Shown here: in pieces, positions 19,868 through 48,556 of the stretch
Numbering within the stretch: position 1 is the first letter of the stretch
Layout: each line of letters starts with the position of its first letter
Source: Candidatus Latescibacterota bacterium
Lineage (GTDB): Bacteria; Latescibacterota; UBA2968; GCA-2709665
Length of the DNA stretch: 64,000 bases
Assembly: GCA_965248435.1 (NCBI GenBank)
Contig: OZ252100.1
Span: forward strand, 5,120,001 to 5,184,000
Direction: 5' to 3'
The notes under the pieces: model-generated
The model's input: the letters and a program-made list of their open reading frames with translations, nothing else
Told to the model about the DNA's origin: nothing
The model's database searches: none
Position numbers and translations under genes: made by a program

Positions 19868-20340
19868 GCCATATCCCCTTGTGTGTGACGACGATCCTTC
19901 GTGGCGCTAGCAGTCTCTATCAAGCAATTGACGTACCCCTCGGCTTGCTAGGCGGTCCGTGTGCTTACCGATACGGGTGACACGGTTGTGAGAGGGATGA
20001 AACTCACCGGCGAGGAGAGCGCCTGTCATAAAAGGGATGCGGTATGGATCTTTCACTCTTACAGATTCAAACGAAAGGCTTTTTCACCTTCAAGTGAGCG
20101 GCAGGTTGCATTACACGACGTGCCGGGGTGTCTATCAAGGGGAACGAGTGCACTTCTTTTCAACAGTTAATTAGACTTCTGGGGAACAAATACAGACCAC
20201 AGAAGGAGGTTCAAGAGCCGGCGGTACGGTGATTGCAGGAATAGTTCTCGAGTTATCTGCAGTGGAAGTGAAGAGGGTGACGCATTCGAGGAGGTGATCG
20301 TGTAGGTAGCACGGTCAATAAGGCGTGGGGAGATGCAGTT

Positions 20341-20955
20341 GTGGACTACGAAGATGACTATCTGATTCTAAACTTGACCCCCTATTTCAATAGTGATGGA
20401 ATTTCTTCCGATGAAGACCGTGCCGACGGATTCTTTACGGCTAACGGATATACCTATGCGGAAGAAGATTTGCCAGCGTCGAATTCGATCCTGGAATGCG
20501 ATGACGTTGTGTTCCGATTTCCTGACAAAAGCGCAGGCCGAGATAATAACATCTCCTTAGAGGGCCAGAAAATTCCGGTTCCTGAGGATCTGTACGACAC
20601 GGTCTACTTCCTTGGCGCGGCTGAAGAGATCAGTTTACGAGAAAACATTCAGTTCGTTTTTTCAGACGGTGGGCGGGAGGAGGCTTTGTTAGGACTAAGC
20701 GGGTGGGGGCTGGGGCGCGAACTCGAATACGGAGAGCGCGCGGCGATTCAATGCGAGGGATACCATATCGTGCGCCCCGTGTCCTACCATCGCTATACGG
20801 ACACCCTCGGTCTTGATCACGGTATTTGGATGCAGAGCGTGTCCATCTCAGACAGACCGTTGGTTGGGATTGAGCTTCCGGATCTTCCGCCGATGCACAT
20901 TTTTGCAATGACACTTCACCGTACAGAGATCGGAAAGTTCCAGAGGAAACAGTGA
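20341..20955 (+). CDS. Uncharacterised acidic beta-sandwich-like protein
   Basis: 204 aa; DNNISLEGQKIPVP..YFLGAA motif recalls accessory beta-sandwich modules of some glycoside hydrolases; overlaps the next gene by 4 nt. Confidence 0.55.
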   Translation: MDYEDDYLILNLTPYFNSDGISSDEDRADGFFTANGYTYAEEDLPASNSILECDDVVFRFPDKSAGRDNNISLEGQKIPVPEDLYDTVYFLGAAEEISLRENIQFVFSDGGREEALLGLSGWGLGRELEYGERAAIQCEGYHIVRPVSYHRYTDTLGLDHGIWMQSVSISDRPLVGIELPDLPPMHIFAMTLHRTEIGKFQRKQ

Positions 20956-21956
20956 AGCGGCTAATTTCAGGTATACCGTTCTGCAATTATCATTATTACA
21001 ACTGCGAACATAGAACATTCGATGTGCTCGTCAGATTTTATGGTTACGAAACGCCGCTCATCCTTCACGCGAATTGGTACTTTTCGTTCCGCAGGCGGGG
21101 CGATGAGAATTTTCAGCTCAGTTCCGGATCGCAGGCCCTCTTTCAAAGTTTGGCAAGATGCGGTATTCAGGTTGTCGTGCATCAGGAGCCCACGATCCAA
21201 GCTGCCTGGGAGCGTGTGGTTTCACAGATTCTGGAAGGACATCCCGTTCCAATCCTGGCAGACCAGAGGCATCTCGAGGACTACTATTTGGTCCGTCAGG
21301 GAGTAGACGGAGGGCACTACGTGATCCTGGACGGTTTTGATGAGGAAAGGAAGACGGTGCACGTCATCGATCCTTCACCCGGGAGAAAGTTTCGAGGAGA
21401 GTTGCCATTTTCCGGTTTCTTCGCAGAGAACGGCAGGATCGATGATGACCGGCCTGGACCTAACTGGTATGAGCTCCGTCTCTCAGAGCCGCGTTGGGCT
21501 CTTTCTGTTGAAGAGGCCGTTAAAACCCTGAGGCAAAACGTTCGTCAAATGCTGCGAGGGAGTGCTTATCTGTCCGATACACTTGTCGGGCTGCAAGGAC
21601 TGCAGATGCTGGCGGAGCAGACGATAGAATGGAGAGATCTAGAGAGCGACGAGGCGCGGTTGCGGCTGAAACACCTGTCAAAATCTCTTAATAATGTCCT
21701 TATGGAACGGGAAGGGCACAGTGATTATCTCAAGCTGGTGGCCCAAGAGATGGATCACCCCGAAGTTGGTATCGTCAGTGAGCAGCTTCGCCACATTGTG
21801 CAAAAGTGGTACGTGTTACGAAATGTCTGTTTAAAGGGCCAGATCAAGGGTCTAGAACAAACGGTCGAGAAACTTTCTGATCGGTTGCGGGAAATCTCAT
21901 GCCTTGAGGAACAGGCGCTGAATCAGTTGAATGGAGTGGTCGGACACTCACGGTAA
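20952..21956 (+). CDS. BtrH-like papain-fold (C39-related) Cys enzyme with C-terminal helical DUF4872-like domain
   Basis: N-terminal NCEH, PVPILADQRHL, GHYVILDGFDEE..VHVIDP, GLQGL..LA, IxxLEEQA. Confidence 0.75.
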   Translation: MKRLISGIPFCNYHYYNCEHRTFDVLVRFYGYETPLILHANWYFSFRRRGDENFQLSSGSQALFQSLARCGIQVVVHQEPTIQAAWERVVSQILEGHPVPILADQRHLEDYYLVRQGVDGGHYVILDGFDEERKTVHVIDPSPGRKFRGELPFSGFFAENGRIDDDRPGPNWYELRLSEPRWALSVEEAVKTLRQNVRQMLRGSAYLSDTLVGLQGLQMLAEQTIEWRDLESDEARLRLKHLSKSLNNVLMEREGHSDYLKLVAQEMDHPEVGIVSEQLRHIVQKWYVLRNVCLKGQIKGLEQTVEKLSDRLREISCLEEQALNQLNGVVGHSR

Positions 21957-22125
21957 GTTTCCCCGCATTTTGAGACAGCTATAGTACTTGGGTACACGAT
22001 CTTTAGAATGTTTCGTGGGAACAAAGCATGCTTTCAACGGCAGGTTCACTGGATGTTTAAAACCCCCAGATCTGCCCGAAAGCCATAAGCGTATGATGGT
22101 ATGATCAAGAAAGGAGGTGATCAAT

Positions 22126-22350
22126 ATGCCGAAGATGAAACCGAAGCTCATCAAACCCCGGAGACGTGATTGCTCAAATGCGGTAGATGCGTATCTGAGC
22201 GAGTCTCAGCAGTGTATGTTAGGTGCCGCAGCATTGGGCACAGCTACGGCTTTAATGGTAGTTATGACTGGAGGGGCCGGCCTTGCCGTTTTCCTTGCTG
22301 CAAATGCGATAGGCGGCCTTGCGCAGGTATCCTATGTTGTTGCCTGCTAG
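22126..22350 (+). CDS. 74-aa candidate RiPP/bacteriocin precursor
   Basis: Strong RBS AAGGAGGTGA; basic leader KPKLIKPRRR; Gly/Ala-rich hydrophobic core; Cys16, Cys30 and terminal Cys74. Confidence 0.7.
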   Translation: MPKMKPKLIKPRRRDCSNAVDAYLSESQQCMLGAAALGTATALMVVMTGGAGLAVFLAANAIGGLAQVSYVVAC

Positions 22351-22582
22351 GATTCCAGAAATCGGTTGCGAATAGCTTTTCGGTTGTAGATCTGGGGGGA
22401 TTAACTTGCGTTTCTCGGAAATTCGTGACATGTATGGAAAGGCTCGTCCAAAAAAAATAGAGAATGGGCCCGATCGGCTTCGAAGAAGTAAGAAGTGCGA
22501 CATCGGAATGAATGTTCGTCCCAAGGAGCCTTCTTATCGCTTGTCAACAGTCATCCAGAACTGACGATGGAAGCGTCGTACG

Positions 22583-23368
22583 ATGAGATCAACACATCAG
22601 TTTCATTCGCAAAGCGCCAGAACTGCGTTACTCAGCAGTAAGAAGATCTGCATTCTTCTCAAGACGAACTTCCTCCTGGGTAAACGACTTACAGAGTCTA
22701 CTTATGTAACAATCCTACTGTATGCTTTGTTTGGATTCTGCACAGCTATTCTAGGAATGCTCTCTCTAATTGCAAAGCCTTGTTTCTTACACGCCACAGT
22801 TTTTTATATAACCTTGCTTGCTCTGGTGCAGGTACTTGCATTGAGTATTTACCAGTCACGATCGGGTATTTACCTAAGTAGATATAAATTGGGGATCTAT
22901 CCTGTATCTAATCACGCTGTCCTATGGTTTTTGTGGCTCAATGAATTTATCGATCTTAAGCTCATAACACTTCTGTTTCCAATATCCACATGTCTGGCGT
23001 TTCTCATCTATCTTCATCGATTAGGGGCAATTTATTATGCAATTCTCATCGCTATTGTTTACGCCACCTTCTGTTTGTTTCTTTTAATCGTAAGATTGAT
23101 TACTGCGGAATTTGAATGGACGCGAACCCCTGTTTCAATTGGAAGTATCGCTCTCTTTCTGGCAATGGCAGTATATTCTAGTCCAGAGAGAAATCGCCAT
23201 CTAATCCACATTGAAAATTCTTTGAGTGGGCAGACTTTCTTCATCAGTATTTTCGGCGTATTTATTCTAGCCTGGCTATTTCTATATGCATGTGCCTACT
23301 ATCTGATTTCTGCTGAACATTTCAAGGAAATGCAAGCACAAGAAACCTACCACGAAGTGTTCGAATGA
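22583..23368 (+). CDS. Multi-pass membrane protein (putative exporter permease/immunity)
   Basis: About 6 hydrophobic helices; AT-rich; overlaps the next gene. Confidence 0.7.
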   Translation: MRSTHQFHSQSARTALLSSKKICILLKTNFLLGKRLTESTYVTILLYALFGFCTAILGMLSLIAKPCFLHATVFYITLLALVQVLALSIYQSRSGIYLSRYKLGIYPVSNHAVLWFLWLNEFIDLKLITLLFPISTCLAFLIYLHRLGAIYYAILIAIVYATFCLFLLIVRLITAEFEWTRTPVSIGSIALFLAMAVYSSPERNRHLIHIENSLSGQTFFISIFGVFILAWLFLYACAYYLISAEHFKEMQAQETYHEVFE

Positions 23369-24090
23369 GTGCCTGTATGACAAGCCCACGAACAGCGAAT
23401 ATAAACATTCCGTATCTCTTGCGTCTTTTAAGCTCAAACTTGCGTTTGACCTGTCGATATTCGGGAATGAGATTTCCTTTACTTTGGATTTCAGCATATT
23501 GCATTCCTTACCTGGCATATGAAACAACGGGCGTCCCAAACCCTGCGTTTAATTTTATTGCCTTGATCGCTTTAATGTTTTCATGCGAACCGTTTCTTGT
23601 GGATGCCTTAAACGGCGAGGTAAACACGCTTGTTCGATACATTGCCAGCGGCGTGGATCTGGTTTATGTCATCCTTATGAACAATACCATCTCGATCTGT
23701 ATTCTTTGCACCTCCTTTTTGCTCCTCGCCTTGGAGATAGAAATCATCAGCGTGCACTCCGGGAATCCTGAAATTTCCGAGACGACACGGTTTATGGGTA
23801 TGTACCTTTTTGCTGCCATCTTTCCTCTGCTGGTCCTTGGAAACTACGCATCGGTTCTTAGACATTCTCTGGGCATTCGGAGAAACGGAACGCTTTTGCG
23901 TCGAGTAGTATTGAGCACAATTCTAATCAGTTTGGCATCGATTCCCTTTGTGATTTGTGAACTCTTCTTTGACACAGTTTTTGTTACCCTGACTGTGATT
24001 TGTTTGAGTATCGGAACGTGGTATATCGTCAGCATTAGGCACGTAGCCCTTATCGCCCGACAACAGATATTCGATTTGATGGAGCTCTGA
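23365..24090 (+). CDS. Multi-pass membrane protein (putative ABC-2-like permease)
   Basis: About 6 TM helices; directly abuts the ATPase. Confidence 0.7.
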   Translation: MSACMTSPRTANINIPYLLRLLSSNLRLTCRYSGMRFPLLWISAYCIPYLAYETTGVPNPAFNFIALIALMFSCEPFLVDALNGEVNTLVRYIASGVDLVYVILMNNTISICILCTSFLLLALEIEIISVHSGNPEISETTRFMGMYLFAAIFPLLVLGNYASVLRHSLGIRRNGTLLRRVVLSTILISLASIPFVICELFFDTVFVTLTVICLSIGTWYIVSIRHVALIARQQIFDLMEL

Positions 24091-24879
24091 ATGGCAACAA
24101 ATGCGCTACAGGTAGAGAAATTGAGTAAGCATTATCGCAAGGGTGCCGTCAAGGCGCTGGATCTGCTTTCACTGGATGTCAAGAGAGGACGGATGTTCGG
24201 GGTGGTTGGGCAGAATGGTGCTGGCAAGACAACACTAATTTATATCATCGCAGGCCTTATCCGTCAGACAAAGGGCAGGTTTTTTATTTTTGATGAGGAG
24301 GTCGAACAGACTGATTATCACTATCGCCGCCGCATCGGTTTCGTGTTGGAGCGTCCGATGTATTTCAATAAGCTCACAGTTAAGGAGTATCTAGAGTTCG
24401 TTGCGGGGATGTACGACATTCCAAAGCAGGAAACGCGCCTAAAGATTGAAGAATTGATCGAATTTTTTGATCTACGCCAAATGGCGGATAGATACATCGA
24501 AACCTACTCAAAGGGAATGAAACAAAAGGTATCTCTCGCCGCTGCTATTATTCACGAACCTGATTTATTGATCCTGGATGAACCGTTTGACGGCATCGAC
24601 TTTGCGTCTTCTGAGGAGATCAAGAACCTTCTTTTACAGATGAATGCCAAGGGCATTACGAGTGTTATTACTTCCCACATTTTGGAGCTTGTCGAATCGC
24701 TATGTGATGAGTGCGCCATTATTCACGAAGGACGAGTGGTGTTTCAAAGCACGATGCAAGATCTTGAGGTGCAGCTCCGGAATACTTCCGATGGTACGCC
24801 GAAGTCTTCTCTGAGGGATATTTTTATGCAGATCACGGCGGCTGATCGGAAGCACAAGTCTCTTTCATGGTTGTCGTGA
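24091..24879 (+). CDS. ABC exporter ATPase
   Basis: GQNGAGKTT, YSKGMKQK, ILDEPFDG, TSH. Confidence 0.95.
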   Translation: MATNALQVEKLSKHYRKGAVKALDLLSLDVKRGRMFGVVGQNGAGKTTLIYIIAGLIRQTKGRFFIFDEEVEQTDYHYRRRIGFVLERPMYFNKLTVKEYLEFVAGMYDIPKQETRLKIEELIEFFDLRQMADRYIETYSKGMKQKVSLAAAIIHEPDLLILDEPFDGIDFASSEEIKNLLLQMNAKGITSVITSHILELVESLCDECAIIHEGRVVFQSTMQDLEVQLRNTSDGTPKSSLRDIFMQITAADRKHKSLSWLS

Positions 24880-24916
24880 GAATCCATTCGCTTGTTGGAA
24901 TGCCATAACCAATCTA

Positions 24917-26404
24917 TTGAAAATGACCATGTTAAAAGGGATAAAGAACTGCTTCCTCGGCGAATACACTAAGAGCCGTAATGCCTTTGAGCACATATGC
25001 CTTCCGGATGAAGGAAGGGAGTTTCTGAAGCCGTCCATAGAAATCTTTACCCAGGAGGTTTACGACGCCTGTGAGGGCCAAAGAGAGAGGGCAACCTGTG
25101 AATTTCAAATAGGAAATAGGGAATTTGAAGACTCCAAGTTTCGTAAGGCAGCGGCTTCGTACTCGGACTCCTTGGTGGCCCTAGAGAGTTTGTCCGGCTA
25201 TATATCTCGTGGCGTTTCTCTGGTGATGCTTTCGGAGCTTTGCGAAGCGGCCAGGATGTTTGAGAAAGGGTGGGATCTGGCACTTCAACAGCGCTCTCAT
25301 CGGTTTAAAGCAGCAATTGGAATCAACTTGGGCCAGGTTTATGTCGATTTGGGTAGGTTAGATTGTTCCCACAAAATCCTAAGGGACGTTGTTGAGGATT
25401 GTCGCGAGACCGGAGATCTTGATTTAAAAGCGATGGCGCTTGCTCATCTCGCCCTAATGATGTTTGTCAGGGGGTCATACGACGAGGGAATTGAGAGCTG
25501 CAACCTCGCGAGTGAGATTTGTCAAGGAGGAGAAGATGACGCTCGAGCCCTTTTTGCTAAGGGCGTCCTGTTTATGGCAAAAGGGGACCTTGAGGAGGCA
25601 CAAACTGTCTTGCAAGAAGGAACAAGATTGCTCAAGGACCTCAAGTATTCTTACACTGACGCCCGAATTCGGTTACAGCTGGCACATCTCCAGTTGCTTA
25701 AGGGAAAGGGGCAGGAGGCATTGGAGGTTTCTAAGGGCGCCCTTCACGGTTTTCAACGGATCCTAAGTCCACAAGGCGAAGCTCGAACCATAGGATTGAT
25801 TGCGATTATTCGTTCTTCCATGGGGGACACTGAACAAGGACGTCAGCTGTTCCGAAAGGCTCTGGCATTAGACCGCCAGACCGGATATCGACGTGGTGAG
25901 ATCAGACAGCTTCTCAATTGGAGCAAGATCAGCCTTCAACTAGGCGATATTGAAAATGCCTGTACCTTATCGCAGGAGGCTGAGAGGCTTGCTCTGATGA
26001 TCGGTCATACTATCGCGCTTCTGGAAGCTACGCCTTTGCGTGCATTGTCGTCAGGGAATATCTCGGAAATAGATAAGAATACCACTTTGAAAGAATGTTT
26101 GGAATTAAGCAGAACCACTTGTATCTCCGTCGGTGAAATCCAGATCCAGCAGTTTCTTAGTTCCGATTACCTGGGCTGTGGACAGCTGGATGAAGCGCTG
26201 GACTGTTGTCGAAAAGCAGTGGATTTGAGCCGAGATTTGGGAAATCGCGTCGAGCAAGCGAAGTCTCACGGCTTCCTGGCCCAGCTATTGGATCAGAAAG
26301 GGGAGCATCAGCTCGCGGCTGAGCAGGTAGGAATCGCCGAGGCAATGCTGCAAAGTATGGGCATTCCGATACAGCCGAGAGGTCAGGTCCCGTTTCCGAA
26401 CTGA
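24917..26404 (+). CDS. TPR-repeat protein (MalT/NB-ARC-type TPRs)
   Basis: Repeated NLGQVY..G, EA..AL..R..G.R.GE helices; no catalytic domain recognised. Confidence 0.75.
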   Translation: MKMTMLKGIKNCFLGEYTKSRNAFEHICLPDEGREFLKPSIEIFTQEVYDACEGQRERATCEFQIGNREFEDSKFRKAAASYSDSLVALESLSGYISRGVSLVMLSELCEAARMFEKGWDLALQQRSHRFKAAIGINLGQVYVDLGRLDCSHKILRDVVEDCRETGDLDLKAMALAHLALMMFVRGSYDEGIESCNLASEICQGGEDDARALFAKGVLFMAKGDLEEAQTVLQEGTRLLKDLKYSYTDARIRLQLAHLQLLKGKGQEALEVSKGALHGFQRILSPQGEARTIGLIAIIRSSMGDTEQGRQLFRKALALDRQTGYRRGEIRQLLNWSKISLQLGDIENACTLSQEAERLALMIGHTIALLEATPLRALSSGNISEIDKNTTLKECLELSRTTCISVGEIQIQQFLSSDYLGCGQLDEALDCCRKAVDLSRDLGNRVEQAKSHGFLAQLLDQKGEHQLAAEQVGIAEAMLQSMGIPIQPRGQVPFPN

Positions 26405-38256: not shown

Positions 38257-38910
38257 ATGACGAAAATACCGCGTGGCGGCTTGGTAAGAACCGACAAGGG
38301 ATTGCGTTGCTGGTGGTGCCTTACGGACCCCCTCTACATTCGTTATCACGACCGTGAGTGGGGCCGACCTGTACGCGACGACACGCGGCTGTTTGAGAAA
38401 ATGTGTCTTGAGGGATTTCAGTCGGGTCTGAGTTGGCTGACGATTCTAAAGAAGCGCGAAAACTTTCGCGAGGCCTTCGATGGGTTTGACATTGAACGGG
38501 TCGCGCGATTCGGGAAACGGGACGTGACTCGACTGTTGAAAAATGCCGGTATTGTGCGTCACCGGGGCAAGATCGAATCGACCATCAACAACGCCAAACG
38601 CGCGCGCGAGTTGGTGGAAGAGGCAGGCTCTTTGGCGGCGTATTTTTGGCGTTTCGAGCCTGAAGCTTCGTCGCGTCCCAAACGGATGACGCTTGCGAAA
38701 ATCATGGCGATGACAAAGTCGCCAGAGTCGATTGCGTTGTCCAAAGATCTAAAAAAGCGTGGCTTTACCTTCGTGGGGCCCACCACGGCGTATGCCTTCA
38801 TGCAGGCGATGGGAATGGTGAATGACCATATTGAAGGGTGCGGAATTCGAGAGGAGGCGATCGCGGCGCGCACGAAGTTTCGTCGCCCGAGTTTCGTTGC
38901 CGACGATTAA
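38257..38910 (+). CDS. tag: DNA-3-methyladenine glycosylase I
   Basis: RCWW..YHD.EWG, LEGFQSGLSW, FVGPTT.YAFMQA.G.VNDH..C. Confidence 0.95.
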   Translation: MTKIPRGGLVRTDKGLRCWWCLTDPLYIRYHDREWGRPVRDDTRLFEKMCLEGFQSGLSWLTILKKRENFREAFDGFDIERVARFGKRDVTRLLKNAGIVRHRGKIESTINNAKRARELVEEAGSLAAYFWRFEPEASSRPKRMTLAKIMAMTKSPESIALSKDLKKRGFTFVGPTTAYAFMQAMGMVNDHIEGCGIREEAIAARTKFRRPSFVADD

Positions 38911-38951
38911 CCTTGTGCATAGAGGATATCCCGGAAAGAAAGGAACCCGAC

Positions 38952-40292
38952 ATGCCAAATCGCAAGACCGCTTTGATGCTGCTTGAGTTAGTTGGTTTGG
39001 CTTTTTTGGCTGTAGTTTGCAGCGATAACAAGACGTACAACGAAGCCGGGCAAAAGGCTTACGAGCAGGGCCACTACGCCGAAGCTGAAAAGCAATTTGT
39101 GGCCGCTCTCGAAGAAGCAGAAAAGGTCGGGCCTCAAGATCCTGGCCTCGCCACAAGCCTGAACAATCTGGCGGGAGTTTACAGAGCCCAGGGCAAGACT
39201 GCAGAGGCCGAGCCGCTATACAAGCGGTCACTGGCGATATTGGAAAAGGCCCTTGGGCCAGACCATCCTGTTGTGGCGGCCTCCTCGAACAATCTGGCGG
39301 GACTTTACAGAGCCCAGGGCAAGACTGCAGAGGCCGAGCCGCTATACAAGCGGTCACTGGCGATATTGGAAAAGGCCCTGGGGCCAGACCATCCTGATGT
39401 GGCGGCCTCCTTGAACAATCTGGCGGGACTTTATAGAGCCCAGGGCAAGTATGCAGAGGCCGAGCCACTATACAAGCGGTCACTGGCAATCAAGGGGAAA
39501 ACGCTTGGGCCAGACCATCCTGATGTGGCGACCTCCTTGAACAATCTGGCGGGACTTTACAGGGCCCAGGGCAAGTATGTTGAGGCCGAGCGACTAAACA
39601 AGCGGTCACTGGCGATATTGGAAAAGGCCCATGGACCAGACCACCCCTCTGTGGCGACCTCTTTGAACAATCTGGCGCTACTTTACAGAGCCCAGGGCAA
39701 GTACGCAGAGGCCGAGCCACTAAACAAGCGGTCACTGGCGATATTGGAAAAGGCCCATGGACCAGACCACCCCTCTGTAGCGACCTCCTTGAACAATCTG
39801 GCGCTGCTTTATCATGACCAGGGCAAGACTGCAGAGGCCGAGCCATTATACAAGCGGTCACTGGCGATATGGGAAAAGACCCTGGGGCCAGACCATCCTG
39901 ATGTGGCTACCTCCTTGATCAATCTGGCGGATTTTTACGGAACCCAGGGCAAGTATGCAGAGGCCGAGCGACTGAACAAGCGGGCACTGGAGATCATGGA
40001 AATGGTCCTGGGGCCAGACCATCCTGATGTGGCGATCTCCTTGAACAATCTGGCGGAACTTTACAGAGCCCGGGGCAAGTACGCAGAGGCCGAGCCACTA
40101 TACAAGCGGTCACTGGCAATACTGGAAAAGACCCTGGGACCAGACCATTCCCATGTGGCCAAAAGCCTGGAGAACTACGCTGCCCTGCTACGGAAAACGC
40201 AACGCAACTTCGAGGCGGAAGAAATGAAGGCTCGCGCAAAGGCGATCCGGGTCGAGCAAGCAATGAGAAACACATCCGTGATAAGTGAATAG
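38952..40292 (+). CDS. TPR protein with near-identical 42-aa kinesin-light-chain-type repeats
   Basis: About 8-9 repeats of GPDHP.VATSLNNLA.LY.AQGKY.EAEPLYKRSL; N-terminal hydrophobic segment. Confidence 0.92.
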   Translation: MPNRKTALMLLELVGLAFLAVVCSDNKTYNEAGQKAYEQGHYAEAEKQFVAALEEAEKVGPQDPGLATSLNNLAGVYRAQGKTAEAEPLYKRSLAILEKALGPDHPVVAASSNNLAGLYRAQGKTAEAEPLYKRSLAILEKALGPDHPDVAASLNNLAGLYRAQGKYAEAEPLYKRSLAIKGKTLGPDHPDVATSLNNLAGLYRAQGKYVEAERLNKRSLAILEKAHGPDHPSVATSLNNLALLYRAQGKYAEAEPLNKRSLAILEKAHGPDHPSVATSLNNLALLYHDQGKTAEAEPLYKRSLAIWEKTLGPDHPDVATSLINLADFYGTQGKYAEAERLNKRALEIMEMVLGPDHPDVAISLNNLAELYRARGKYAEAEPLYKRSLAILEKTLGPDHSHVAKSLENYAALLRKTQRNFEAEEMKARAKAIRVEQAMRNTSVISE

Positions 40293-40316
40293 GATAGGGG
40301 ATCGCTGGATTTGGCT

Positions 40317-40470
40317 TTGAGGGGGCAGTGTGGCACGCCCTGTCGGGGTTCGAATCCCCGCTTCGGCACCAGTTAAAAAACAAAGGGTTACGTCATCAAG
40401 ACGTAACCCCTTTTTATTGCCAATTGCGCCACTGCTGCCATTTTGCTACCGTTTGGATCACTTGATGCGA
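40317..40470 (+). repeat. tRNA-Leu 3' half (anticodon loop to CCA, variant variable arm) + conserved tail, unit 2
   Basis: TTGAGGGGGCAGTG..GTTCGAATCCCCGCTTCGGCACCA; tail nearly identical to unit 1. Confidence 0.92.
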
Positions 40471-40736
40471 ACCCAACTGCTGGGTTTTTCGCCTACAAGG
40501 GGTTTCACGAACCGGTTCGAATAGAATGTTATCGGGGGCGGAGTCTGTGTAGTTCGAAGATATACCCACTTCAGACGAGAACGTTAGTGGCCACCTGCAA
40601 AGGCAATGCTATGAACAGAGATATGGTAGAGCTAGCACAGATCGAGGATTCTTTCCGGGGGAGGTTCGAAGCCACCGTCCGGGATAGAGCGAAGCAAAAA
40701 AACGTGGTGTAACAGCTCATTAAGGAGATATCGCAA

Positions 40737-41621
40737 ATGGTCGACATTCCCTATGTGGTATCCGAGGAAGAAAAGTACTATTTCGACCTCAGAGGCTACC
40801 TGATCATCCGTAACGTGCTTTCTCCGGAAGAAATCGGTGCCTGCAACCACGCCATCGACCAGTTTACCGACCAGATTGTGCCCGGCAACGAAATCGGGGA
40901 ACTCTCCCGGGGCTCAGAGGCTCTGGCCGGCAGCGGCCGGATCGAATTGCGCGGCATGCTCGGCTGGCCCGAACCCCACCGCAGCCCTTTCCGCAACCTA
41001 CTGATCCACCCGGTCGTCGTCTCCCGCCTCAACGAATTCTCCGGCAAGGGTTTCCGCCTGGACCACGGCCCCCTCCTCATCAGCGCCAAAAAAGGCACCG
41101 AAGGCCACTGGCTCCACGGCGGCGGCGAACCCTTCAGCCCGGCCGTCTGGTACCACCAGCAAAACGGCAAAATCTACTGCCGCGGCATCACCGTCGCCTG
41201 GCAGTTGGCCGTCTGCGGTCCCGGCGACGGCGGCTTCTGCATCGTGCCGGGAAGCCACAAACTCAGCGAACCCACGCCGGAGGAAGTCCGTTTCGCAGAA
41301 GATGATATGGACCTCATTGTCCAGCCTGAAATGGATGCCGGCGACGTCCTCTTCTTTGCCGAAACCGCCACTCACGGCGCCCTGCCCTGGAAGGCTGACC
41401 ACGACCGCAGGTCCGTCCTCTACAAATACACCTCCCGGGCCGCGGCCCGGGAGGTGGGCAAGCACTTTACGCCACAAGAGCGTTACGGCGAATGGGTCAA
41501 CGAACTCACCCCCGAACAGCAGGCTGTCCTCTACGGCCCCGGCGTGCACCACGGAGGGCGGCTGCCCCTGCTGGAGTCGGATGGGAAATCAGTGCAGATC
41601 GTGGAAATGGAGACCAAATAA
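40737..41621 (+). CDS. PhyH-family Fe(II)/2OG dioxygenase-like protein
   Basis: YFDLRGYL, GGFCIVPGSHK, GDVLFF.E...HG, RRSVLYKY. Confidence 0.88.
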   Translation: MVDIPYVVSEEEKYYFDLRGYLIIRNVLSPEEIGACNHAIDQFTDQIVPGNEIGELSRGSEALAGSGRIELRGMLGWPEPHRSPFRNLLIHPVVVSRLNEFSGKGFRLDHGPLLISAKKGTEGHWLHGGGEPFSPAVWYHQQNGKIYCRGITVAWQLAVCGPGDGGFCIVPGSHKLSEPTPEEVRFAEDDMDLIVQPEMDAGDVLFFAETATHGALPWKADHDRRSVLYKYTSRAAAREVGKHFTPQERYGEWVNELTPEQQAVLYGPGVHHGGRLPLLESDGKSVQIVEMETK

Positions 41622-42534
41622 TGGACGCCAAAGAACGCTACCTCTGGGATTTGAACGGGCACCTGATTGTCTGCAACGTCCTCAGCGAGGAGGATCTCAA
41701 AGCCGCAAACGATGCCATCGACTTCTGCGCCGACCGCATCGTGCCGGGCGATGAAAACCGCCTTTCCAGAGGCTCCACGTTCTGCAGGGCCTGGGGCGTC
41801 CCGGATTGCAGGGCACCAACCTGCTCGACATCGAAAAACCATACTGCGACATCTTCCGCAAACTGCTCGTCCACCCCGCCGTCATCTCCCGCCTGAAAGT
41901 CATGTGCGGCACAGGCTTCCGTCTCGACCACGGCCCCCAGTTTATCGGCGGTATCAAAGGCACCTCCGGGCACGCCCTCCACGGCTCCGGAGCCCCCCAC
42001 AAACCCTACGTGGCCTATCGCAACCGGAACGGTGAAATGCACTGCGCCGGCGTCACCGTCTCCTGGCAACTGGTCGAAGTGCCTGAAGGCAAAGGCGGGT
42101 TCGCCTGCGTGCCCGGCTCTCACAAATCCGACTTCGACATGCCCGAAGGCGTGCGCACCGTGGACGACGACATGGGCACCTCCATCAACCCCGAAGCCCA
42201 CCCCGGCGACGTTGTCTTCTTTATGGACGGGGCTCAGACCCACGGCACATATCCCTGGGTGAACGACCACGAGCGCCGTTCCATCCTTTACAAATTCGCC
42301 TCCCGTACCGCCGTTCGCTCAGGTGTCTCCGTCCAGATTGCTCCCCCGGAGATCTACTGGGATGAAAACATCGTCGACGGCATGACGCCGGAAGAGCGTG
42401 CTGTCATGTATGGCCCCTGCTCGGGCCACGGAGGCGTCGTCCCCTCCCTCGATGTCACAGAAGACGGCACCGTCATCGTGGAAGGTGGAGACGAGACCAA
42501 AGCACCCCCGACGCCTGATGGACCTCCGCAATGA
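41621..42534 (+). pseudogene. Second PhyH-family paralog with apparent 1-nt frameshift near 41780
   Basis: MDAKERYLWDLNGHL..SRGST switches frame to LQGLGRP..DHGP..PGSHKS..THGT. Confidence 0.8.
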
Positions 42535-42854
42535 CGGTCACAGGGAAGCCACTCGGGCGGGGTAGAGCTATCCTGATTACACAGCCTCCCGCTTAATCCC
42601 TCTCTGTTTCCCCATTTACATAACATCCAGTTCTGACTCAACCTCCTGGCACCCTCTTTGCCTGTCTGTAATGCAAAAGGAGGGTGCCAATGTTTTGCCC
42701 GGAAGAACTACGACGCCAGACTGATTGAAGACTTGGAGCGGGCTTGTGACAATGGTCACTTATTTTGGTAGCATGGTTTTGCATCCTGTCTATATTGAGA
42801 AATCCGGCCTCAGTTCATAAGTGACCCCAACCCTACAGGACGGAGGAACCAGCC

Positions 42855-44393
42855 ATGCGATACTCTCGACTTAAGTGGGTTTTGCCCATCGTAGTCTGCA
42901 CTTTGGCCGTTGTGACATCTGCTTATGCTCAGGTAAGAAGGGCGCCTCCGCCTCCGGGTAGACAGACACAGCAGGACTCTGTTACCGAGATCAAAGAGTT
43001 GAAACGCCAGATTGACCAACTGATGGGTAAACTCCCCCCCAACGTACAGGACGAGCTTGAAAAGGAACTGGCACAACCTCCTGGACCGCTCTCTCGCGGG
43101 CAGCCCCCTCAGACAGGCCGACCGCTGCCGTCGGACCAAGAGGCGGTGAAGCGTAAGATCCTTACGCTGAAGGATGAGATGGACAAACTGATGAGCAAGC
43201 TGCCACCGCGCACACAGGCCGAGCTCAAGCAGGAGCTGGCACAACCTCCGGAATCACCCCAGAAACCGGGTAGACCACAGCCGGGCCGAGGATCTCCACA
43301 GCTCGGAGGAACGCAGCTGGCTCCGCCACGGCCTGGTGCCCCGCAGCCAGGTTCACAGCAGCAACCCGGAGCTCCGCCGATTGGCGGAACTCAGCCCGGT
43401 CTGCCACAGCCTGGCCATGGTTCCCCCCAGTTCGGCAGACCTCAGCCGGGCCCACCTCAGCCGGGTACAAAGCATGCCGGTCCACCCGGAAAATCCCAGC
43501 CAGGTGCCCAGCGGCCTGGTGTGACGGAGGCCGGTCCACCCAGGCCCGGCGTCCAACCGTCTGGACCCCAGCCGGCGCCTCAGCAGCCTCCACCCCAGAA
43601 AACGGGCGTCCAACCGTCTGGACAACCCGCCCTCCTGATCGACGAGGAGTGCGCGTTCGTGAGCAGCACCTCGATGGGGGAAGTCCCCCCCAGAAGTAAT
43701 GTGGTCCCGCCACTCACGGTCGAGGTGGAGGGGGGCAGGATCCCCAACAAACTATTCCGGTGGATCGAGGACTCTTTTGCCGGCAGCGGAGTCGCGACCA
43801 GATCGGGTGAGATCCACATCATCCGCATCTCAGACTACGAATCGATGGCCGTCCGCGAATTCCAGAACGCCCACATCTCGAGCGTCACCTTTTCCGCGCT
43901 GGACGCCAATAGCCTCGATCCAACCCGCATCACGGTTGCTTTCAACCCTGAGAGCATCGTCAATAAGGCGGGCACCGGCAAGACCTCCAGTCCGCCAGGG
44001 TGGCCAGGGCAGAAAGGTAGGACATACTTTCGCGTGACCTTGGATGGGTTACCAACCAGCCACGTGTCACGGATCGAGTCGTTCGCCTGGAGTCGAGACT
44101 TGGATGGGAACACGGTCACGGTCCCGGAGCTCGAGCTGACCATCTCAATGATCGACTATGATGTCTACTTGGAAAAATTCGAAGCGTTTGTGATCTCCGG
44201 TAACCTTGGGACCGAACAGGAACTTGCCGGCAGTCTGGAACTCCTCGCCGGTAATCTTAAGACCGTTCTGGCCACTATTGAGCTGGGGGGCGTCACGCCC
44301 GTCTCCATCGACATCGGCAAATTTGAGGCGAGCAAGGAAGCAATGGCCCGCTTCAAGGTCCGTCTCAATGTCGGTAGCATGCGGTTCAAATAG
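42855..44393 (+). CDS. Secreted protein: signal peptide, duplicated helical unit, Pro/Gln/Gly-rich linker, C-terminal tandem gp19/Hcp-like tail-tube domains
   Basis: RBS GGAGG; AYA cleavage site; LF.WI..SF..RSGEI..REF.NA.ISSVTF.ALDA and FRV.LDGL...VSRIESF..P.L.LT..G..EQE..GSLELL patterns recalled from tandem tube proteins. Confidence 0.65.
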   Translation: MRYSRLKWVLPIVVCTLAVVTSAYAQVRRAPPPPGRQTQQDSVTEIKELKRQIDQLMGKLPPNVQDELEKELAQPPGPLSRGQPPQTGRPLPSDQEAVKRKILTLKDEMDKLMSKLPPRTQAELKQELAQPPESPQKPGRPQPGRGSPQLGGTQLAPPRPGAPQPGSQQQPGAPPIGGTQPGLPQPGHGSPQFGRPQPGPPQPGTKHAGPPGKSQPGAQRPGVTEAGPPRPGVQPSGPQPAPQQPPPQKTGVQPSGQPALLIDEECAFVSSTSMGEVPPRSNVVPPLTVEVEGGRIPNKLFRWIEDSFAGSGVATRSGEIHIIRISDYESMAVREFQNAHISSVTFSALDANSLDPTRITVAFNPESIVNKAGTGKTSSPPGWPGQKGRTYFRVTLDGLPTSHVSRIESFAWSRDLDGNTVTVPELELTISMIDYDVYLEKFEAFVISGNLGTEQELAGSLELLAGNLKTVLATIELGGVTPVSIDIGKFEASKEAMARFKVRLNVGSMRFK

Positions 44394-44625
44394 CCTGAAT
44401 CCAACGGAGACAACAACCAGAGCAGCAGCATCAGACTAGACCCTAGAATCCAGCCGGGACGAGAATCCCAATGAAAGGCGGCGGGACAGAATCTTCTCCT
44501 CACCTTCAAATCGGCCTGTAGGACGGACTTCCATTTGGCCTGGCAAACACATCTCGCGCTGGCCTCCCACCAGCCCGCCTGGAGGTTCTTGACTCACCAT
44601 ATTCAGTTGTCAAAGAGCAGATCCG

Positions 44626-44684
44626 CGGTATACCACTTCGGCCCGTTCGGTGTTCACGCACCGGCGGGCCTTTCTCTTTGCTTA
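44626..44684 (+). terminator. 59-bp terminator-containing direct repeat, copy 1
   Basis: GGCCCG.TCGGTG..CACCGGCGGGCC-TTTCTCTTT; near-identical at 45757-45815. Confidence 0.75.
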
Positions 44685-44814
44685 GATTCGCCACTTCTTC
44701 TGGGCTCTGGAATCACTATATTGAGTGATCACTGTCACGTGCTTTTTTGGTTTAAATGCGTAAACTAAACGTGCTTTCCGAGTCTTGCAGGAAACCCAAA
44801 AGGAGGAACATGCC

Positions 44815-45729
44815 ATGCGAACCCATAAATTACCCTTGGTCTTGACCCTTACGATTCTCCCTTTAATCATTTCCACACCAAGCAAAGCAGCCGACTTACG
44901 AACAGACCGATACGAACAAAAAGCAGTTCTGTTGATTGGGGGCCAAGATCCAAACGCAATCCGTGTTAATCTGGGGGAAAAGGTGCAAACCAGGTCCTCT
45001 GGGCAGCGTGTTGTGGAAACAAACCAGGGCCGGCTGCTTGATTTCAGCGTTTATATCGATCTAACATTCCCTACATCATCACTATCCAGTTGGATACATG
45101 AATCGGTTACCAAAGGAGTCGCCAGCACAAGGCTTGTCGAGCTCACAAGTTATGACCCCGCTTTGGGTAAAATGCGTCAGGATGTGTTCCCCAGCAACTA
45201 TGTCATCTCGCGGGTTATCTTCCCCATGTTAAACGCTAAGAGCAGCTCCCAAGCCGAAATGTCGGTCCAGATCATCCCCAGCGGTCTCCCGTTAGGCTCA
45301 GGAGGGGGAGGGGGATCTACTGGGCGTGTTGAACATAAAACCCAGACGCTGATTAGTGAGAGAGACTTCAGTGTGGAAAACAACATCGGTCTGCCTGAGG
45401 ACGTGCAAGTCCAAGCCGTTAGCCATCTGACCTGGCAGAAGGAAGGTGGCCAGGTCCAGATTTCACCGGTTCAATTGACACTACTCTTGACCAAAGACGT
45501 TGCAAAGGCCTTCTCTGACCTCATGACGAAAGTTCGCATAGGTGGCTTGCTGCGAGGTAGCATTACCCTGCATCTGATGAACCCGATGACCAGGTTGCCG
45601 ATGTATTCGATCGAGCTGCATAATCTGACGCTTGTTTCATTCCAGCAGTCTCAATTGATGGATCGATCCGGTCTCCTCTCCGGTGAGATGGTAATAAAAC
45701 CCGCACAGGTCATTTTTACTTCCCGTTGA
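44815..45729 (+). CDS. Secreted protein, divergent paralog of the tandem tube-like region of 42855..44393
   Basis: RBS AAGGAGG; signal peptide; LSSWI..S..G...R, ISRV.FP.LNA.S, Gly linker, F.V....GLP, GSI.L..L....I.L. Confidence 0.55.
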   Translation: MRTHKLPLVLTLTILPLIISTPSKAADLRTDRYEQKAVLLIGGQDPNAIRVNLGEKVQTRSSGQRVVETNQGRLLDFSVYIDLTFPTSSLSSWIHESVTKGVASTRLVELTSYDPALGKMRQDVFPSNYVISRVIFPMLNAKSSSQAEMSVQIIPSGLPLGSGGGGGSTGRVEHKTQTLISERDFSVENNIGLPEDVQVQAVSHLTWQKEGGQVQISPVQLTLLLTKDVAKAFSDLMTKVRIGGLLRGSITLHLMNPMTRLPMYSIELHNLTLVSFQQSQLMDRSGLLSGEMVIKPAQVIFTSR

Positions 45730-45815: not shown

Positions 45816-45980
45816 AATTTTCGGAAAGGGACAGGCGGGAGGGTGCGGTTCAGGTGAAAATGGCGCTACTGGCCGTGGAGGAGGATAATATTTGACATTG
45901 CGCCGAGACGGTGGTAAATAAATCTCACAGAGTAAGTGATGTCATGCGTGGACCAGAACAAACAGAGGGGAGGACTAAGC

Positions 45981-46355
45981 GTGAACCGCCTAATTACAAT
46001 GAGCACCCTGCTAACCAGTCTGACCTTGATCTGTGCTCCTAAGTCAGCAACAGCTCAAGATCCGGCAAAGGCGTCACCAACCAATTATAAGGTCGTGTTG
46101 GAGAATGATCGTGTTCGAGTTCTGGAGATGAGACTTCATCCTGGGGAAAAGGATAACAAGCACTCACACCCGTCTGAGATTGTTTATTTCGTTCACCCGG
46201 CCAAGGTGAAAATCACGCTTCCAGATGGAGAAACCATAGATGCGGAACTCAAGAAAGGTCACGTGATGTTTCACGATGCGTGGACACACACAGTACAAAA
46301 TGTAGGCACAGAGGAACTACTTGCGATTATCGTGGAGTTAAAGGAGATGCCGTAG
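45981..46355 (+). CDS. Exported small cupin
   Basis: Signal peptide; YKVVLENDRVRVL..PGE....HSHP..HTV.NVG..ELK. Confidence 0.85.
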   Translation: MNRLITMSTLLTSLTLICAPKSATAQDPAKASPTNYKVVLENDRVRVLEMRLHPGEKDNKHSHPSEIVYFVHPAKVKITLPDGETIDAELKKGHVMFHDAWTHTVQNVGTEELLAIIVELKEMP

Positions 46356-46612
46356 GGATCTTTCTGGATTTTGCTGTTGGATGACAATTCGAGAGTGAAC
46401 CCCCAGTGGGGGAACAAAACCAGAGTCTTCCGATATGACTTGACAGGCCTATTCAGGCAGTTGCAAATTACCCCTCGGCGGCGTCCCTTTGTATGGAATC
46501 TGTGGTGGTGCATATTGGGGACTGCCGAATGTAAGAACTCTTGAAACCCAGACGGTGTCCCTGATGTCGGGATGTCTTCTGGGTTCTTCGTCTTTACAGG
46601 GAAACTAAAAGT

Positions 46613-47629
46613 TTGACCGAAACCATTCTCGCTGACGGATACCCCGCCCTGAGCGCAGAGGTCACCCGTCTCCTCCAGGAGGGAAAGGTGCGAGCGGTCG
46701 CGGCGGTGGAGCGTGAAACGCTGGTGACCTATCACGGGATCGGGCGCGTGGTGAGCGAGTACCTGCTGGCGCACCCCGCGGGCTACGGCGAGCAGACGAT
46801 GACGCGACTTGCGTCAGACGCAGGGCTTAGCAGGTCTATAATTTACGAAGCCGTTGATTTTTATAGATTTAGACCAAAATTCCATGCGCGTGGAAAATTG
46901 GTCTGGACGCATTATCGAGCCCTCCTCAGGCTGCCGACGGACGCGGAGCGTGACGCGGGTGAGGCAGCGGCCCTGAAGCACTCCTGGAGCGTGCGCGAGC
47001 TGGAGGCGCAGATCAGGGCAGGGGCGATCGCGCCCGCTGCCCGGGCGTCTCGCGAGGTCGCGCCGACCCATCCCCTCGCAGCGCTTCGCGGGCAGTTTTA
47101 CACCTACAAGCTGATCGAGGGGAGCGAACCCGGTGATGGGTTACGGTTGGACCTGGGATTCGGGATACAGCTCGCCTGGCCGATTCCGGAAGAGGAGAGG
47201 TATAGAGCGGGGCAATTCGTGACCGCGTCGCGCGAAGCAGATGAGGCCTACTGCTTCGTTCAGGTCACCGACCGGACCGCCGCGTTCTACACGTATCGAG
47301 CGAAAGTCCTCAGGGTGATCGACGGAGATACGGTCTGGCTGGACATCGACTGCGGGTTCAGGGTGTGGACGCGCCAGAAGGTGCGCCTCCGGGGCATCGA
47401 TACTCCGGAGATCGAGACCGCGGAAGGCGTCCAGGCGCGAGACTTTGTCGTGGACGCGCTGAAGGGCCTGCCGTTCGTCGCGGTCACCACGACGAAGCCG
47501 GACAAGTACGATCGATACCTGGCCGATCTGTTCTACCTGGCTGGAGAAGAGGACAAAGAGGGGGTGCTCAAGGAAGGGGCATTTCTGAATCGCGAGCTCG
47601 TGCAGGCGGGGTTCGCCAGGAGAGTCTAG
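46613..47629 (+). CDS. DUF1016(YhcG)-N-like domain fused to a thermonuclease (SNase) domain
   Basis: Y..IGR..YG......LA, L.WTHYRALL..WSVREL..QI; VLRVIDGDT, VRLRGIDTPE, DKYDRYLA, LN.ELV..G.A. Confidence 0.85.
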   Translation: MTETILADGYPALSAEVTRLLQEGKVRAVAAVERETLVTYHGIGRVVSEYLLAHPAGYGEQTMTRLASDAGLSRSIIYEAVDFYRFRPKFHARGKLVWTHYRALLRLPTDAERDAGEAAALKHSWSVRELEAQIRAGAIAPAARASREVAPTHPLAALRGQFYTYKLIEGSEPGDGLRLDLGFGIQLAWPIPEEERYRAGQFVTASREADEAYCFVQVTDRTAAFYTYRAKVLRVIDGDTVWLDIDCGFRVWTRQKVRLRGIDTPEIETAEGVQARDFVVDALKGLPFVAVTTTKPDKYDRYLADLFYLAGEEDKEGVLKEGAFLNRELVQAGFARRV

Positions 47630-47640
47630 ACAAGCTTCTT

Positions 47641-47707
47641 TCTTTGGCGATTGCGTAACTGCTACTATTTTGCTACCGTTTGGATGACTTGATGCGGACT
47701 CAACCCC
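47641..47707 (+). repeat. Tail-only remnant of the tRNA-att repeat
   Basis: ATTGCG..CTGCT....TTTTGCTACCGTTTGGAT.ACTTGATGCG matches the unit 2 tail. Confidence 0.75.
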
Positions 47708-47743
47708 ATGGCAAATGCCTACACACATCAGTGTGGTATCCCG

Positions 47744-48556
47744 ATGCGACTCATGTATGCGTTCTCAGTGCTGATTGCTGGCCTTTTGATTTCTTGCGAA
47801 GGCAAACAGGGACCGACGGGTCCAGAAAATCTCACTTTCGCTGATCTGAATCTTGAGGCGGCCGTTCGGGCCTCGATCTCGCAGCCAACAGGAGATATCC
47901 TATCATCGGACGTCTCTGGACTTACCAGTCTAAATGCTAGTAGCAGAGGCATCGTGAGCCTGGATGGGATCGAAAACCTCACCGTGCTGGACTCGCTCAA
48001 TCTCCTTAACAATCAGATCAGCGAACTGTCCGCATTGTCAGGCCTTACCTCACTGAAGAGTCTCGATCTTGGTATCAATCAGATCAGCGAACTGTCCGCA
48101 TTGTCAGGCCTTACCTCACTGAAGAGTCTCGATCTTGGTATCAATGAGATCAGCGACATCTCTGCGCTGTCAGGCCTCACCTCGCTGGGGTCGCTCTATC
48201 TCTTTAACAATCAGATCAGCGAACTGTCCGCATTATCAGGCCTCACCGGGCTCAGGGATCTCCGTCTGTTCAACAACGAGATCAGCGACATCTCAGCGTT
48301 GTCGAGCCTCACCTCGCTGGAGATTCTCTATCTGAATAAGAACGAGATCAGTGACATCTCTGCGTTGTCAGGTCTCACCGCGCTGGAGGTTCTCAGTATC
48401 GAGACCAATGAGATCAGCGATATCTCAGGACTCGTCAACAACGAGGGACTCGGCTCAGGAGATTTGGTGGGCCTATCTCCTAACCCTCTGAGCGAGGAGG
48501 CGCTATCGGTTCAAATCCCGGCACTCAAGGCACGGGGGGTGACGGTTATCAATTAG
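47744..48556 (+). CDS. Internalin-type LRR lipoprotein
   Basis: Lipobox LISC; 22-aa N.IS..SALSGLT.L..L.L repeats. Confidence 0.9.
   Translation: MRLMYAFSVLIAGLLISCEGKQGPTGPENLTFADLNLEAAVRASISQPTGDILSSDVSGLTSLNASSRGIVSLDGIENLTVLDSLNLLNNQISELSALSGLTSLKSLDLGINQISELSALSGLTSLKSLDLGINEISDISALSGLTSLGSLYLFNNQISELSALSGLTGLRDLRLFNNEISDISALSSLTSLEILYLNKNEISDISALSGLTALEVLSIETNEISDISGLVNNEGLGSGDLVGLSPNPLSEEALSVQIPALKARGVTVIN

Follow-up and report, generated by a model that had tools for sequence, protein, structure and literature searches.

Two predicted secreted relatives of injection-system tube proteins in a Candidatus Latescibacterota genome

The window analysed here, a stretch of 64,000 nucleotides from a Candidatus Latescibacterota bacterium (contig OZ252100.1, positions 5,120,001 to 5,184,000 of the forward strand), encodes two neighbouring proteins, A and B, that are predicted to combine a Sec-type signal peptide with a tandem pair of domains related to the inner tubes of contractile injection systems (CIS). 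Textbooks describe the tube proteins of phage tails, tailocins, extracellular CIS (eCIS) and type VI secretion systems (T6SS) as building blocks of the cytoplasm that depend on a sheath or a tape measure. A and B seem to put the tube fold to another use, in the cell envelope or outside the cell, and we consider it reasonably probable that both are exported, sheath-independent descendants of CIS inner tubes that form rings in the envelope or at the cell surface. The family to which they belong is large and mostly unannotated, and only its members lacking a signal occur inside injection-system clusters.

An earlier note, made from the letters of this DNA alone, had placed two open reading frames (ORFs) here and given them classical signal peptides; both ORFs are present, and the N-termini of A (MRYSRLKWVLPIVVCTLAVVTSAYA) and B (MRTHKLPLVLTLTILPLIISTPSKA) each show a basic n-region, a hydrophobic core and small residues at positions -3 and -1. 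The 12-residue Kyte-Doolittle means of the hydrophobic cores rise to 2.5 in A and 2.3 in B, and a signal-type N-terminus is kept in the A orthologs P0003 and P0004, in the B ortholog P0155 and in a paralog of B encoded elsewhere in the genome (L001). Export of A and B via the Sec pathway is thus predicted with high confidence, and the conservation of Sec-type N-termini in orthologs suggests that assembly in the cytoplasm is likely absent. The genome contains eight Omp85-family matches over the cut-off and the cell is therefore taken to be diderm with an outer membrane, so that export would reach the periplasm or beyond. A lipoprotein reading of A was rejected; in the three orthologs the conserved Cys15 is preceded by V, I or L and not by G, A or S.

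The last 251 amino acids of A were modelled with AlphaFold2 from an 87-row alignment, since a single-sequence prediction of the same domain reached a pLDDT of only 33. The alignment-based model (pLDDT 92.8, pTM 0.89) consists of two beta-sandwich-plus-helix halves. Foldseek, a comparison proposed in the earlier note, matched it best to the tail tip and tube proteins of phages T5 and DT57C and to the tube of P74-26, followed by Afp1, Pvc1 and Hcp. With VIA-align, the P74-26 tube (8ed0_A) gave a Z score of 15.4 over 229 of the 251 residues at an rmsd of 3.4, next to 8xan_A (Z 15.3) and T5 pb6 (9iny_A, Z 15.2), with the whole model covered; across the tandem tail tubes of P74-26, SH-Ab15497, T5 and DT57C, 226-229 of the 251 residues aligned with Z scores of 15.2-15.4. 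The single-domain tubes (T4 gp19, Pvc1, Afp1 and Hcp) align to model residues 117-251, the single CIS tubes and T4 gp19 with Z scores of 12-14.6 and Hcp with about 10 on one half. As judged from the predicted structure, A is shown to have the tube fold and to belong to the tube family.

At the sequence level the relationship is found through the relatives of A and B. Against Phage_T4_gp19 (PF06841), full-length A scores 19.5 bits and its domain alone 23 bits, where the cut-off is 28.2, and against TIGR02241 A scores 12.1 bits for a cut-off of 62.4; B has no Pfam match of its own. Neither protein matches the T6SS_HCP and TssD models (PF05638, PF17642) or the Phage_GPD and Phage_base_V models, BLASTP of A against B is not significant, the PHROGs library gives chance-level matches only, and every tube match in NCBIfam lies below its cut-off. 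Of 87 aligned family members, however, 84 match Phage_T4_gp19 at E ≤ 0.01 (best 3.2e-25), seven of the 87 also touch the TssD Pfam model, and the family profile matches the solved CIS tubes of Streptomyces (8bl4, 8.7e-15), Afp1 (9.5e-7) and Pvc1 (3.5e-6). Homology of A and B to CIS tubes is therefore supported despite the missed cut-off. Because B had been part of the first alignment, the hidden Markov model (HMM) was rebuilt without A, P0004 and B; against it A scores 225.9 bits, B 42.3 bits with both halves, and the B paralog 68.1 bits, so that membership of B in the family, while predicted from its sequence, is well supported. The tandem gp19/Hcp-like region of about 250 amino acids that the earlier note had recognised at both C-termini is accordingly borne out, for A by the model and for B by the HMM. 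Structural look-alikes of B in the ESM Atlas, to be taken as leads only, reach 0.89 for unnamed clusters and 0.88 for a PF06841 cluster.

The machine to which such tubes normally belong was looked for in the window and in the whole genome, which comprises 5.67 Mb on two contigs and is 97.48% complete. As the earlier note had reported, the 64-kb window holds no CIS or T6SS genes, and extending the check to an eCIS elsewhere in the genome gave the same outcome: there is no sheath match over the cut-off, and no match at all to gp25, VipB, CIS_tube, Phage_GPD, T6SS_HCP or Phage_base_V. One weak sheath match in the genome was traced to a UPF0261 protein. The genome contains three members of the tube family, namely A, B and the B paralog. 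This paralog (L001:1048-2337(-), corresponding to G000:C1 at about 201.5-202.8 kb) is 44% identical to B over 249 aligned columns, carries a signal peptide like that of B and stands by itself, with unannotated ORFs around it. No member of the tube family was found at E ≤ 1e-5 in 40 close relatives or in the other 167 genomes of the phylum, and the genes therefore look acquired, as recent arrivals.

Signal-bearing and sheath-linked members of the tandem-tube family

A full HMMER search with the last 251 residues of A returned 1059 representatives at E ≤ 0.001, 273 of them at E ≤ 1e-10; the tube-domain family comprises at least 1059 clusters at 50% identity. The 148 best representatives (132 full length, 16 partial) were sorted into signal classes by simple rules on hydrophobicity, charge and RRxFL-type motifs. 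By these rules 72 of the 132 full-length proteins bear a signal, which is of the Sec type in 46, of the twin-arginine (Tat) type in 20 and of the lipoprotein type in six, three more have an unclassified extension, and the 57 without a signal begin directly at the tube domain. The Tat member P0117 also passes the NCBIfam Tat-signal model.

To place these proteins in their genomic settings, 80 loci were fetched using an alignment of six Tat-type members, a query that biases the proportions among the loci towards exported forms. The loci come from Chloroflexota, Actinomycetota, Nitrospirota, Myxococcota, Verrucomicrobiota, Armatimonadota, Acidobacteriota, Gemmatimonadota and others, and hold 99 tandem-tube ORFs. 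None of the 36 ORFs situated within 8 kb of a sheath gene has a signal, whereas 38 of the 63 away from a sheath gene do under a relaxed Tat rule and 33 of the 63 under a strict one. This split is shown family-wide, with signals only on copies away from sheath genes, and strengthens the idea of a "domesticated" tube put forward in the earlier note. Nine of the 36 genomes that carry an exported copy have a match to a phage-type sheath over the cut-off somewhere, a count made on metagenome-assembled genomes (MAGs) that may be incomplete.

The sheath-linked loci are complete eCIS clusters of the Myxococcota type: besides the tandem tubes they encode Pvc16_N, two sheath proteins, a single-domain tube, CIS_tube and Phage_GPD. 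In the Myxococcota eCIS (L047:6676-15480, L037:5851-15687 and similar loci), two adjacent tandem-duplicated tubes lie beside the single-domain tube; no description of tandem tube proteins as eCIS parts was found in the literature searched. In a FastTree phylogeny the sheath-linked copies nest together (38 rows, 34 of them sheath-linked, support 97) and the exported forms are scattered; the tree is unrooted, and the order of the exported and sheath-linked states cannot be read from it. FastTree also joins the clades of A and B with a support of 96. A sister relationship of A and B is not claimed, as an IQ-TREE mixture model flags this join as the meeting of two long branches.

The immediate neighbours of exported copies share no common theme except a recurrent methyltransferase. 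In Actinomycetota and Chloroflexota, the end of a DUF7059-MTS-DUF7782 methyltransferase gene directly abuts the start of the Tat tandem tube (L007:1866-3392, L009:5846-7816, L020:4325-5785, L027:6068-7795, L036:755-2284 and L083:6273-7811), and two Verrucomicrobiota loci (L040:4122-5723 and L044:1311-3014) carry a different, PKMT-like methyltransferase 3' of the tandem tube. These neighbours could be modification partners or reflect mere synteny.

Ring assembly and alternative roles

The beta2-beta3 long-loop regions are 31 residues each in nearly all of the 99 locus ORFs. In A, the long loop of the first half counts, by eye, about 10 residues in place of 27, and the long-loop region of the second half has 18 residues, 13 fewer than in the family; the corresponding regions of B are 20 and 18 residues long compared with 31. 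In the model of A the first half accordingly has no hairpin and the second half a short one. According to a review of tail tubes (PMC9022992), the long loop makes most of the contact between rings, so that stable stacking is not expected without it, and in T5 the rings are trimers of tandem domains. Since the stacking loops of A and B are shortened, single rings are preferred over filaments. The lack of long stacking, as predicted from the loss of the loops, has in our estimate an even chance of being correct, and trimeric, pseudo-hexameric rings, proposed by analogy with the closest structures, are a similarly balanced prospect. The earlier note had also allowed for filaments; the shortened loops make long ones doubtful for A and B. 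Most other exported family members keep their loops and might polymerise. A three-copy complex prediction of the A domain scored 0.01 and speaks neither for nor against a ring.

A and B would, in the explanation we propose, cross the inner membrane by the Sec pathway, and each mature protein would end in two fused tube domains that form trimers with six-fold-like symmetry, as in T5 and P74-26. The rings would assemble in the periplasm or on the cell surface, as single rings or very short stacks and not as long tubes. Our best guess for the role is that of an envelope or surface ring serving as a scaffold, cap or binding platform.

The mimicry of a tail tube ring also suggests a different use, a defence outside the cell or in the periplasm: secreted as decoys or caps, A and B would bind incoming phage tails or the injection systems of attackers, and could in principle stack on or block the end of a foreign tube. 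Defence genes typically show the kind of patchy, horizontally acquired distribution seen here, with no copy in 40 relatives or in 167 other genomes of the phylum. PADLOC, however, gave no match when run on A and B, on two family members and on four neighbouring genes of other loci, no defence genes adjoin A and B, and the stacking loops that a cap would use are the very ones that are shortened. With no experimental precedent found in the literature searched, we regard such a role as very unlikely.

The part of A preceding the tube domains bears on how a ring might be held. It contains two helical units, each with the pattern helix, Pro-Pro, helix, which align over 32 residues with a score of 97; shuffled sequences average 26.7 and 0 of 1000 shuffles reach 97. 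The two units are a true duplication, as the earlier note had recognised. They are followed by a spacer of 124 amino acids, shorter than the stretch of about 140 given in that note, in which P (31%), Q (18%) and G (20%) together make up 69% of the residues and 13 PG dipeptides are spaced mostly five residues apart. The length of the spacer differs between A orthologs, and Tandem Repeats Finder detected no DNA tandem repeat beneath the Pro/Gln/Gly region. Its composition suggests that the spacer is likely disordered and flexible, in line with that part of the earlier description. A collagen-like triple helix was rejected, as Gly does not occupy every third residue. In the proposed explanation, the helical units and the spacer would keep the ring at a distance from its anchor, in the manner of a flexible tether or brush; for the spacer, this role as tether or brush is plausible.

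The same spacer can be taken to be the functional, elastomer-like part of the protein, with the tube fold a mere beta-sandwich module of a monomeric adhesin or elastic matrix protein. The long low-complexity sequence of A with its loose pentad repeats would fit this, other family members pair a signal or lipobox with long Pro-rich linkers, the shortened inter-ring loops are consistent with a lost polymer function, and several further secreted proteins with repeats, TPR and LRR proteins among them, are encoded in the window. B, however, has no spacer and is nonetheless conserved (75% identity to its ortholog) and kept beside A, and it is in the tube core that the family has its nearly invariant residues. 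All solved tandem tube domains form rings, as far as the structure matches and PMC9022992 go, and we consider a monomeric module unlikely.

Loci from other phyla bear on the possibility that A and B are remnants of, or partners in, an exported sheath-less tail-like apparatus, with tube, Hcp and spike outside the cytoplasm. In Nitrospirota MAG loci a Tat tandem tube adjoins Hcp (PF05638) and VgrG-like genes (Phage_GPD, Phage_base_V and DUF2345), and a Gemmatimonadales locus holds two Sec tandem tubes and two Hcp genes. The positions concerned are L032:10031-12025(-), L032:13152-13862(-), L038:13908-14480(+), L038:14502-16589(-), L010:15250-16989(-), L048:12731-13255(-), L054:11528-12184(+), L045:9645-10226(+) and L045:13469-14032(+). 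At least four Hcp-like and two VgrG-like ORFs of these loci have Sec-type starts by eye, and the genomes concerned yielded VipB in 0 of 8 and a phage sheath in 0 of the 7 searched (G195 left out). The Nitrospirota and Gemmatimonadales genes, judged by their sequences, may constitute an exported sheath-less tail-like set. For A and B themselves such an apparatus is quite unlikely: their own genome has no match to Hcp, Phage_GPD or Phage_base_V, the Nitrospirota copies keep the stacking loops that A and B have lost, and the Hcp and VgrG signals were read by eye in MAGs that may be incomplete. It is a tentative possibility, of modest probability in our view, that tail-tube, Hcp and even VgrG-like proteins have repeatedly gained Sec or Tat signals and make up an undescribed class of non-contractile exported assemblies in many soil and water phyla, within which A and B would be the stripped-down, ring-only form.

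Several points weigh against exported, sheath-independent rings of A and B. Neither protein reaches a Pfam gathering score, and the membership of B draws on the HMM, only the domain of A having a model. The signals of A and B were judged by sequence features, simple rules and conservation, and the signal classes across the family likewise come from simple rules. No signal was recognised in 25 of the ORFs that lie apart from sheath genes, the sampled loci are skewed towards exported forms by their query, and a distant sheath gene can be missed because most loci are MAG contigs cut at 8 kb. The absence of Pvc16_N from the genome is uninformative and carries no weight, because the profile matched no control genome either. 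There is no conserved local context to hint at the function of A and B, their neighbours give no functional clue, and ring assembly is extrapolated from other structures.

If the proposal of exported rings is right, an ancient tube fold has taken on a further role, in the envelope or beyond the cell, and A and B offer a directly testable case of the reuse of a virus-derived machine part. Tat signals carry folded proteins and are common in the family, and one may ask whether the rings leave the cytoplasm already assembled. Many genes labelled "phage tail protein" or left unnamed would probably be neither phage nor injection-system genes, and the signal-bearing Hcp and VgrG genes beside Tat tubes in Nitrospirota may point to a new secretion-related or surface structure.

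Gene starts and genomic surroundings

The features of the two genes are collected in Table 1. A starts at an ATG and is 512 amino acids long. The frame of B is open from 44785 to 45729 and would give 314 amino acids if the TTG at 44785 were used; the best start is the ATG at 44815, because a GGAGGA precedes it by 7 nt and the public gene call, P0154, has the same 304 amino acids. The public protein collection contains A only as P0005, a protein of 244 amino acids starting at an internal GTG. This start was rejected and is judged wrong because the orthologs P0003 (520 amino acids, 65% identity) and P0004 (452 amino acids, 55% identity), both from metagenomes, keep the N-terminus of A, so that the 268 upstream residues are conserved; the signal peptide, both helical units and the entry to the tube domain are present in each. 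The ortholog of B, P0155, shares 75% identity. A homologous-protein search with a broad family alignment returned four proteins only, and scans of JGI metagenomes found no relatives of A and none of B.

Table 1. Features of genes A and B, in positions of the window
Feature	Position	Strand	Basis
Shine-Dalgarno sequence of ORF A, GGAGGA	42842..42847	+	7 nt 5' of ATG 42855, sequence read directly
ORF A: predicted signal peptide, two helical units, Pro/Gln/Gly spacer, tandem tube domain	42855..44393	+	
Predicted Sec-type signal peptide of A, aa 1-25	42855..42929	+	Sequence features, conserved in orthologs
Helical unit 1 of A, aa 46-78	42990..43088	+	Aligns with unit 2; many positions invariant in three orthologs
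Helical unit 2 of A, aa 100-134	43152..43256	+	Aligns with unit 1; orthologs
Pro/Gln/Gly-rich spacer of A, aa 135-258	43257..43628	+	Composition; loose xQPG pentads
Tube domain 1 of A, aa 259-377	43629..43985	+	Model, tandem-tube matches, alignments
Tube domain 2 of A, aa 378-512	43986..44390	+	Single-tube alignments; Pfam stretch 426-506
Shine-Dalgarno sequence of ORF B, GGAGGA	44802..44807	+	7 nt 5' of ATG 44815, read directly
ORF B, 304 aa: predicted signal peptide and divergent tandem tube domain	44815..45729	+	HMM, ortholog P0155
Predicted Sec-type signal peptide of B, aa 1-25	44815..44889	+	Features; conserved in P0155 and paralog
Mature B: two tube-like halves, Gly-rich linker	44890..45726	+	Alignments, family HMM

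The internal public start of A, the sub-threshold Pfam scores and the long branches would fit a reading of A and B as decaying leftovers of a lost injection system or prophage, with signals that arose by chance or from miscalled starts. We hold this to be highly improbable. Both frames are intact and have strong ribosome-binding sites, orthologs at 55-75% identity keep the signal peptide, helical units and domain, a third copy is kept elsewhere in the genome, the domain of A folds with high confidence in the prediction, and export signals recur on dozens of independent family members.

A and B lie on the same strand, separated by 421 nt, and a scan of the locus for promoters and terminators gave nothing above shuffles. 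No phage genes flank them. The surroundings (38838-42534 and 45936-48556) are rich in repeat and secreted proteins and encode a TPR_12 protein with nine repeats, two adjacent PhyH dioxygenases, a small cupin whose N-terminus is signal-like, a DUF1016_N-SNase nuclease and an LRR protein that begins like a lipoprotein. Farther off in the window, the region 20000-26400 has a low GC content (0.44-0.51 compared with about 0.58 elsewhere) and encodes a BtrH_N/Peptidase_C39-like protein with DUF4872, two ORFs without a Pfam match, an ABC-transporter ATPase and a TPR protein. This stretch may be an acquired island for the processing and export of peptides.

Comparison with known tube systems

No exported or signal-bearing tube proteins are described in the literature searched, which included PMC4899797 and PMC3482391. 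Judged on their sequences, A and B appear to fail four features of a working tube, namely a curated score, linkage to sheath and baseplate genes, stacking loops and assembly in the cytoplasm.

The inner tubes of eCIS (Afp1, Pvc1 and the Streptomyces CIS; Phage_T4_gp19) are homologous to the A/B family by sequence profile and share the beta-sandwich-plus-helix fold with each half of A, and signal-less tandem members of the family sit inside real eCIS clusters of Myxococcota. A and B differ from these tubes in having two fused domains instead of one and predicted Sec signal peptides, in the shortened stacking loops, and in a genome that has no match to a sheath, baseplate, spike or terminator; A further has an N-terminal extension of 230 residues.

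The tandem tubes of siphophages (T5 pb6, DT57C, P74-26 and SH-Ab15497) are the best whole-length structural matches of A and share its two-domain layout; they form trimeric rings with pseudo-six-fold symmetry, as described in PMC9022992. Their sequence identity to A is only 9-16%, however, and sequence comparison places the family closer to CIS tubes. A tblastn search of a family member against 50,697 phage records returned nothing, and searches of family members against plasmids returned single-domain eCIS tubes only. Unlike the siphophage tubes, A and B have no phage context and no Ig-like decoration domain and carry predicted export signals.

Hcp (TssD) has the fold of the tube superfamily in common with A, aligning to its second half. 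Hcp rings are not known to polymerise on their own, and in this self-limitation they resemble the single rings proposed for A and B. Classical Hcp has no Sec signal. A and B also differ from Hcp in having tandem instead of single domains and in the absence of T6SS genes from the matches in their genome. In hubs of the gp27/VgrG type each chain likewise has two tube-like domains, and a trimer thereby imitates a hexamer; A and B, in contrast, have no OB-fold or needle domain and no match to Phage_GPD or Phage_base_V. When the family is defined by its own features, which are not curated, as an export signal joined to a tandem gp19-like domain and encoded away from sheath genes, A and B fit it.

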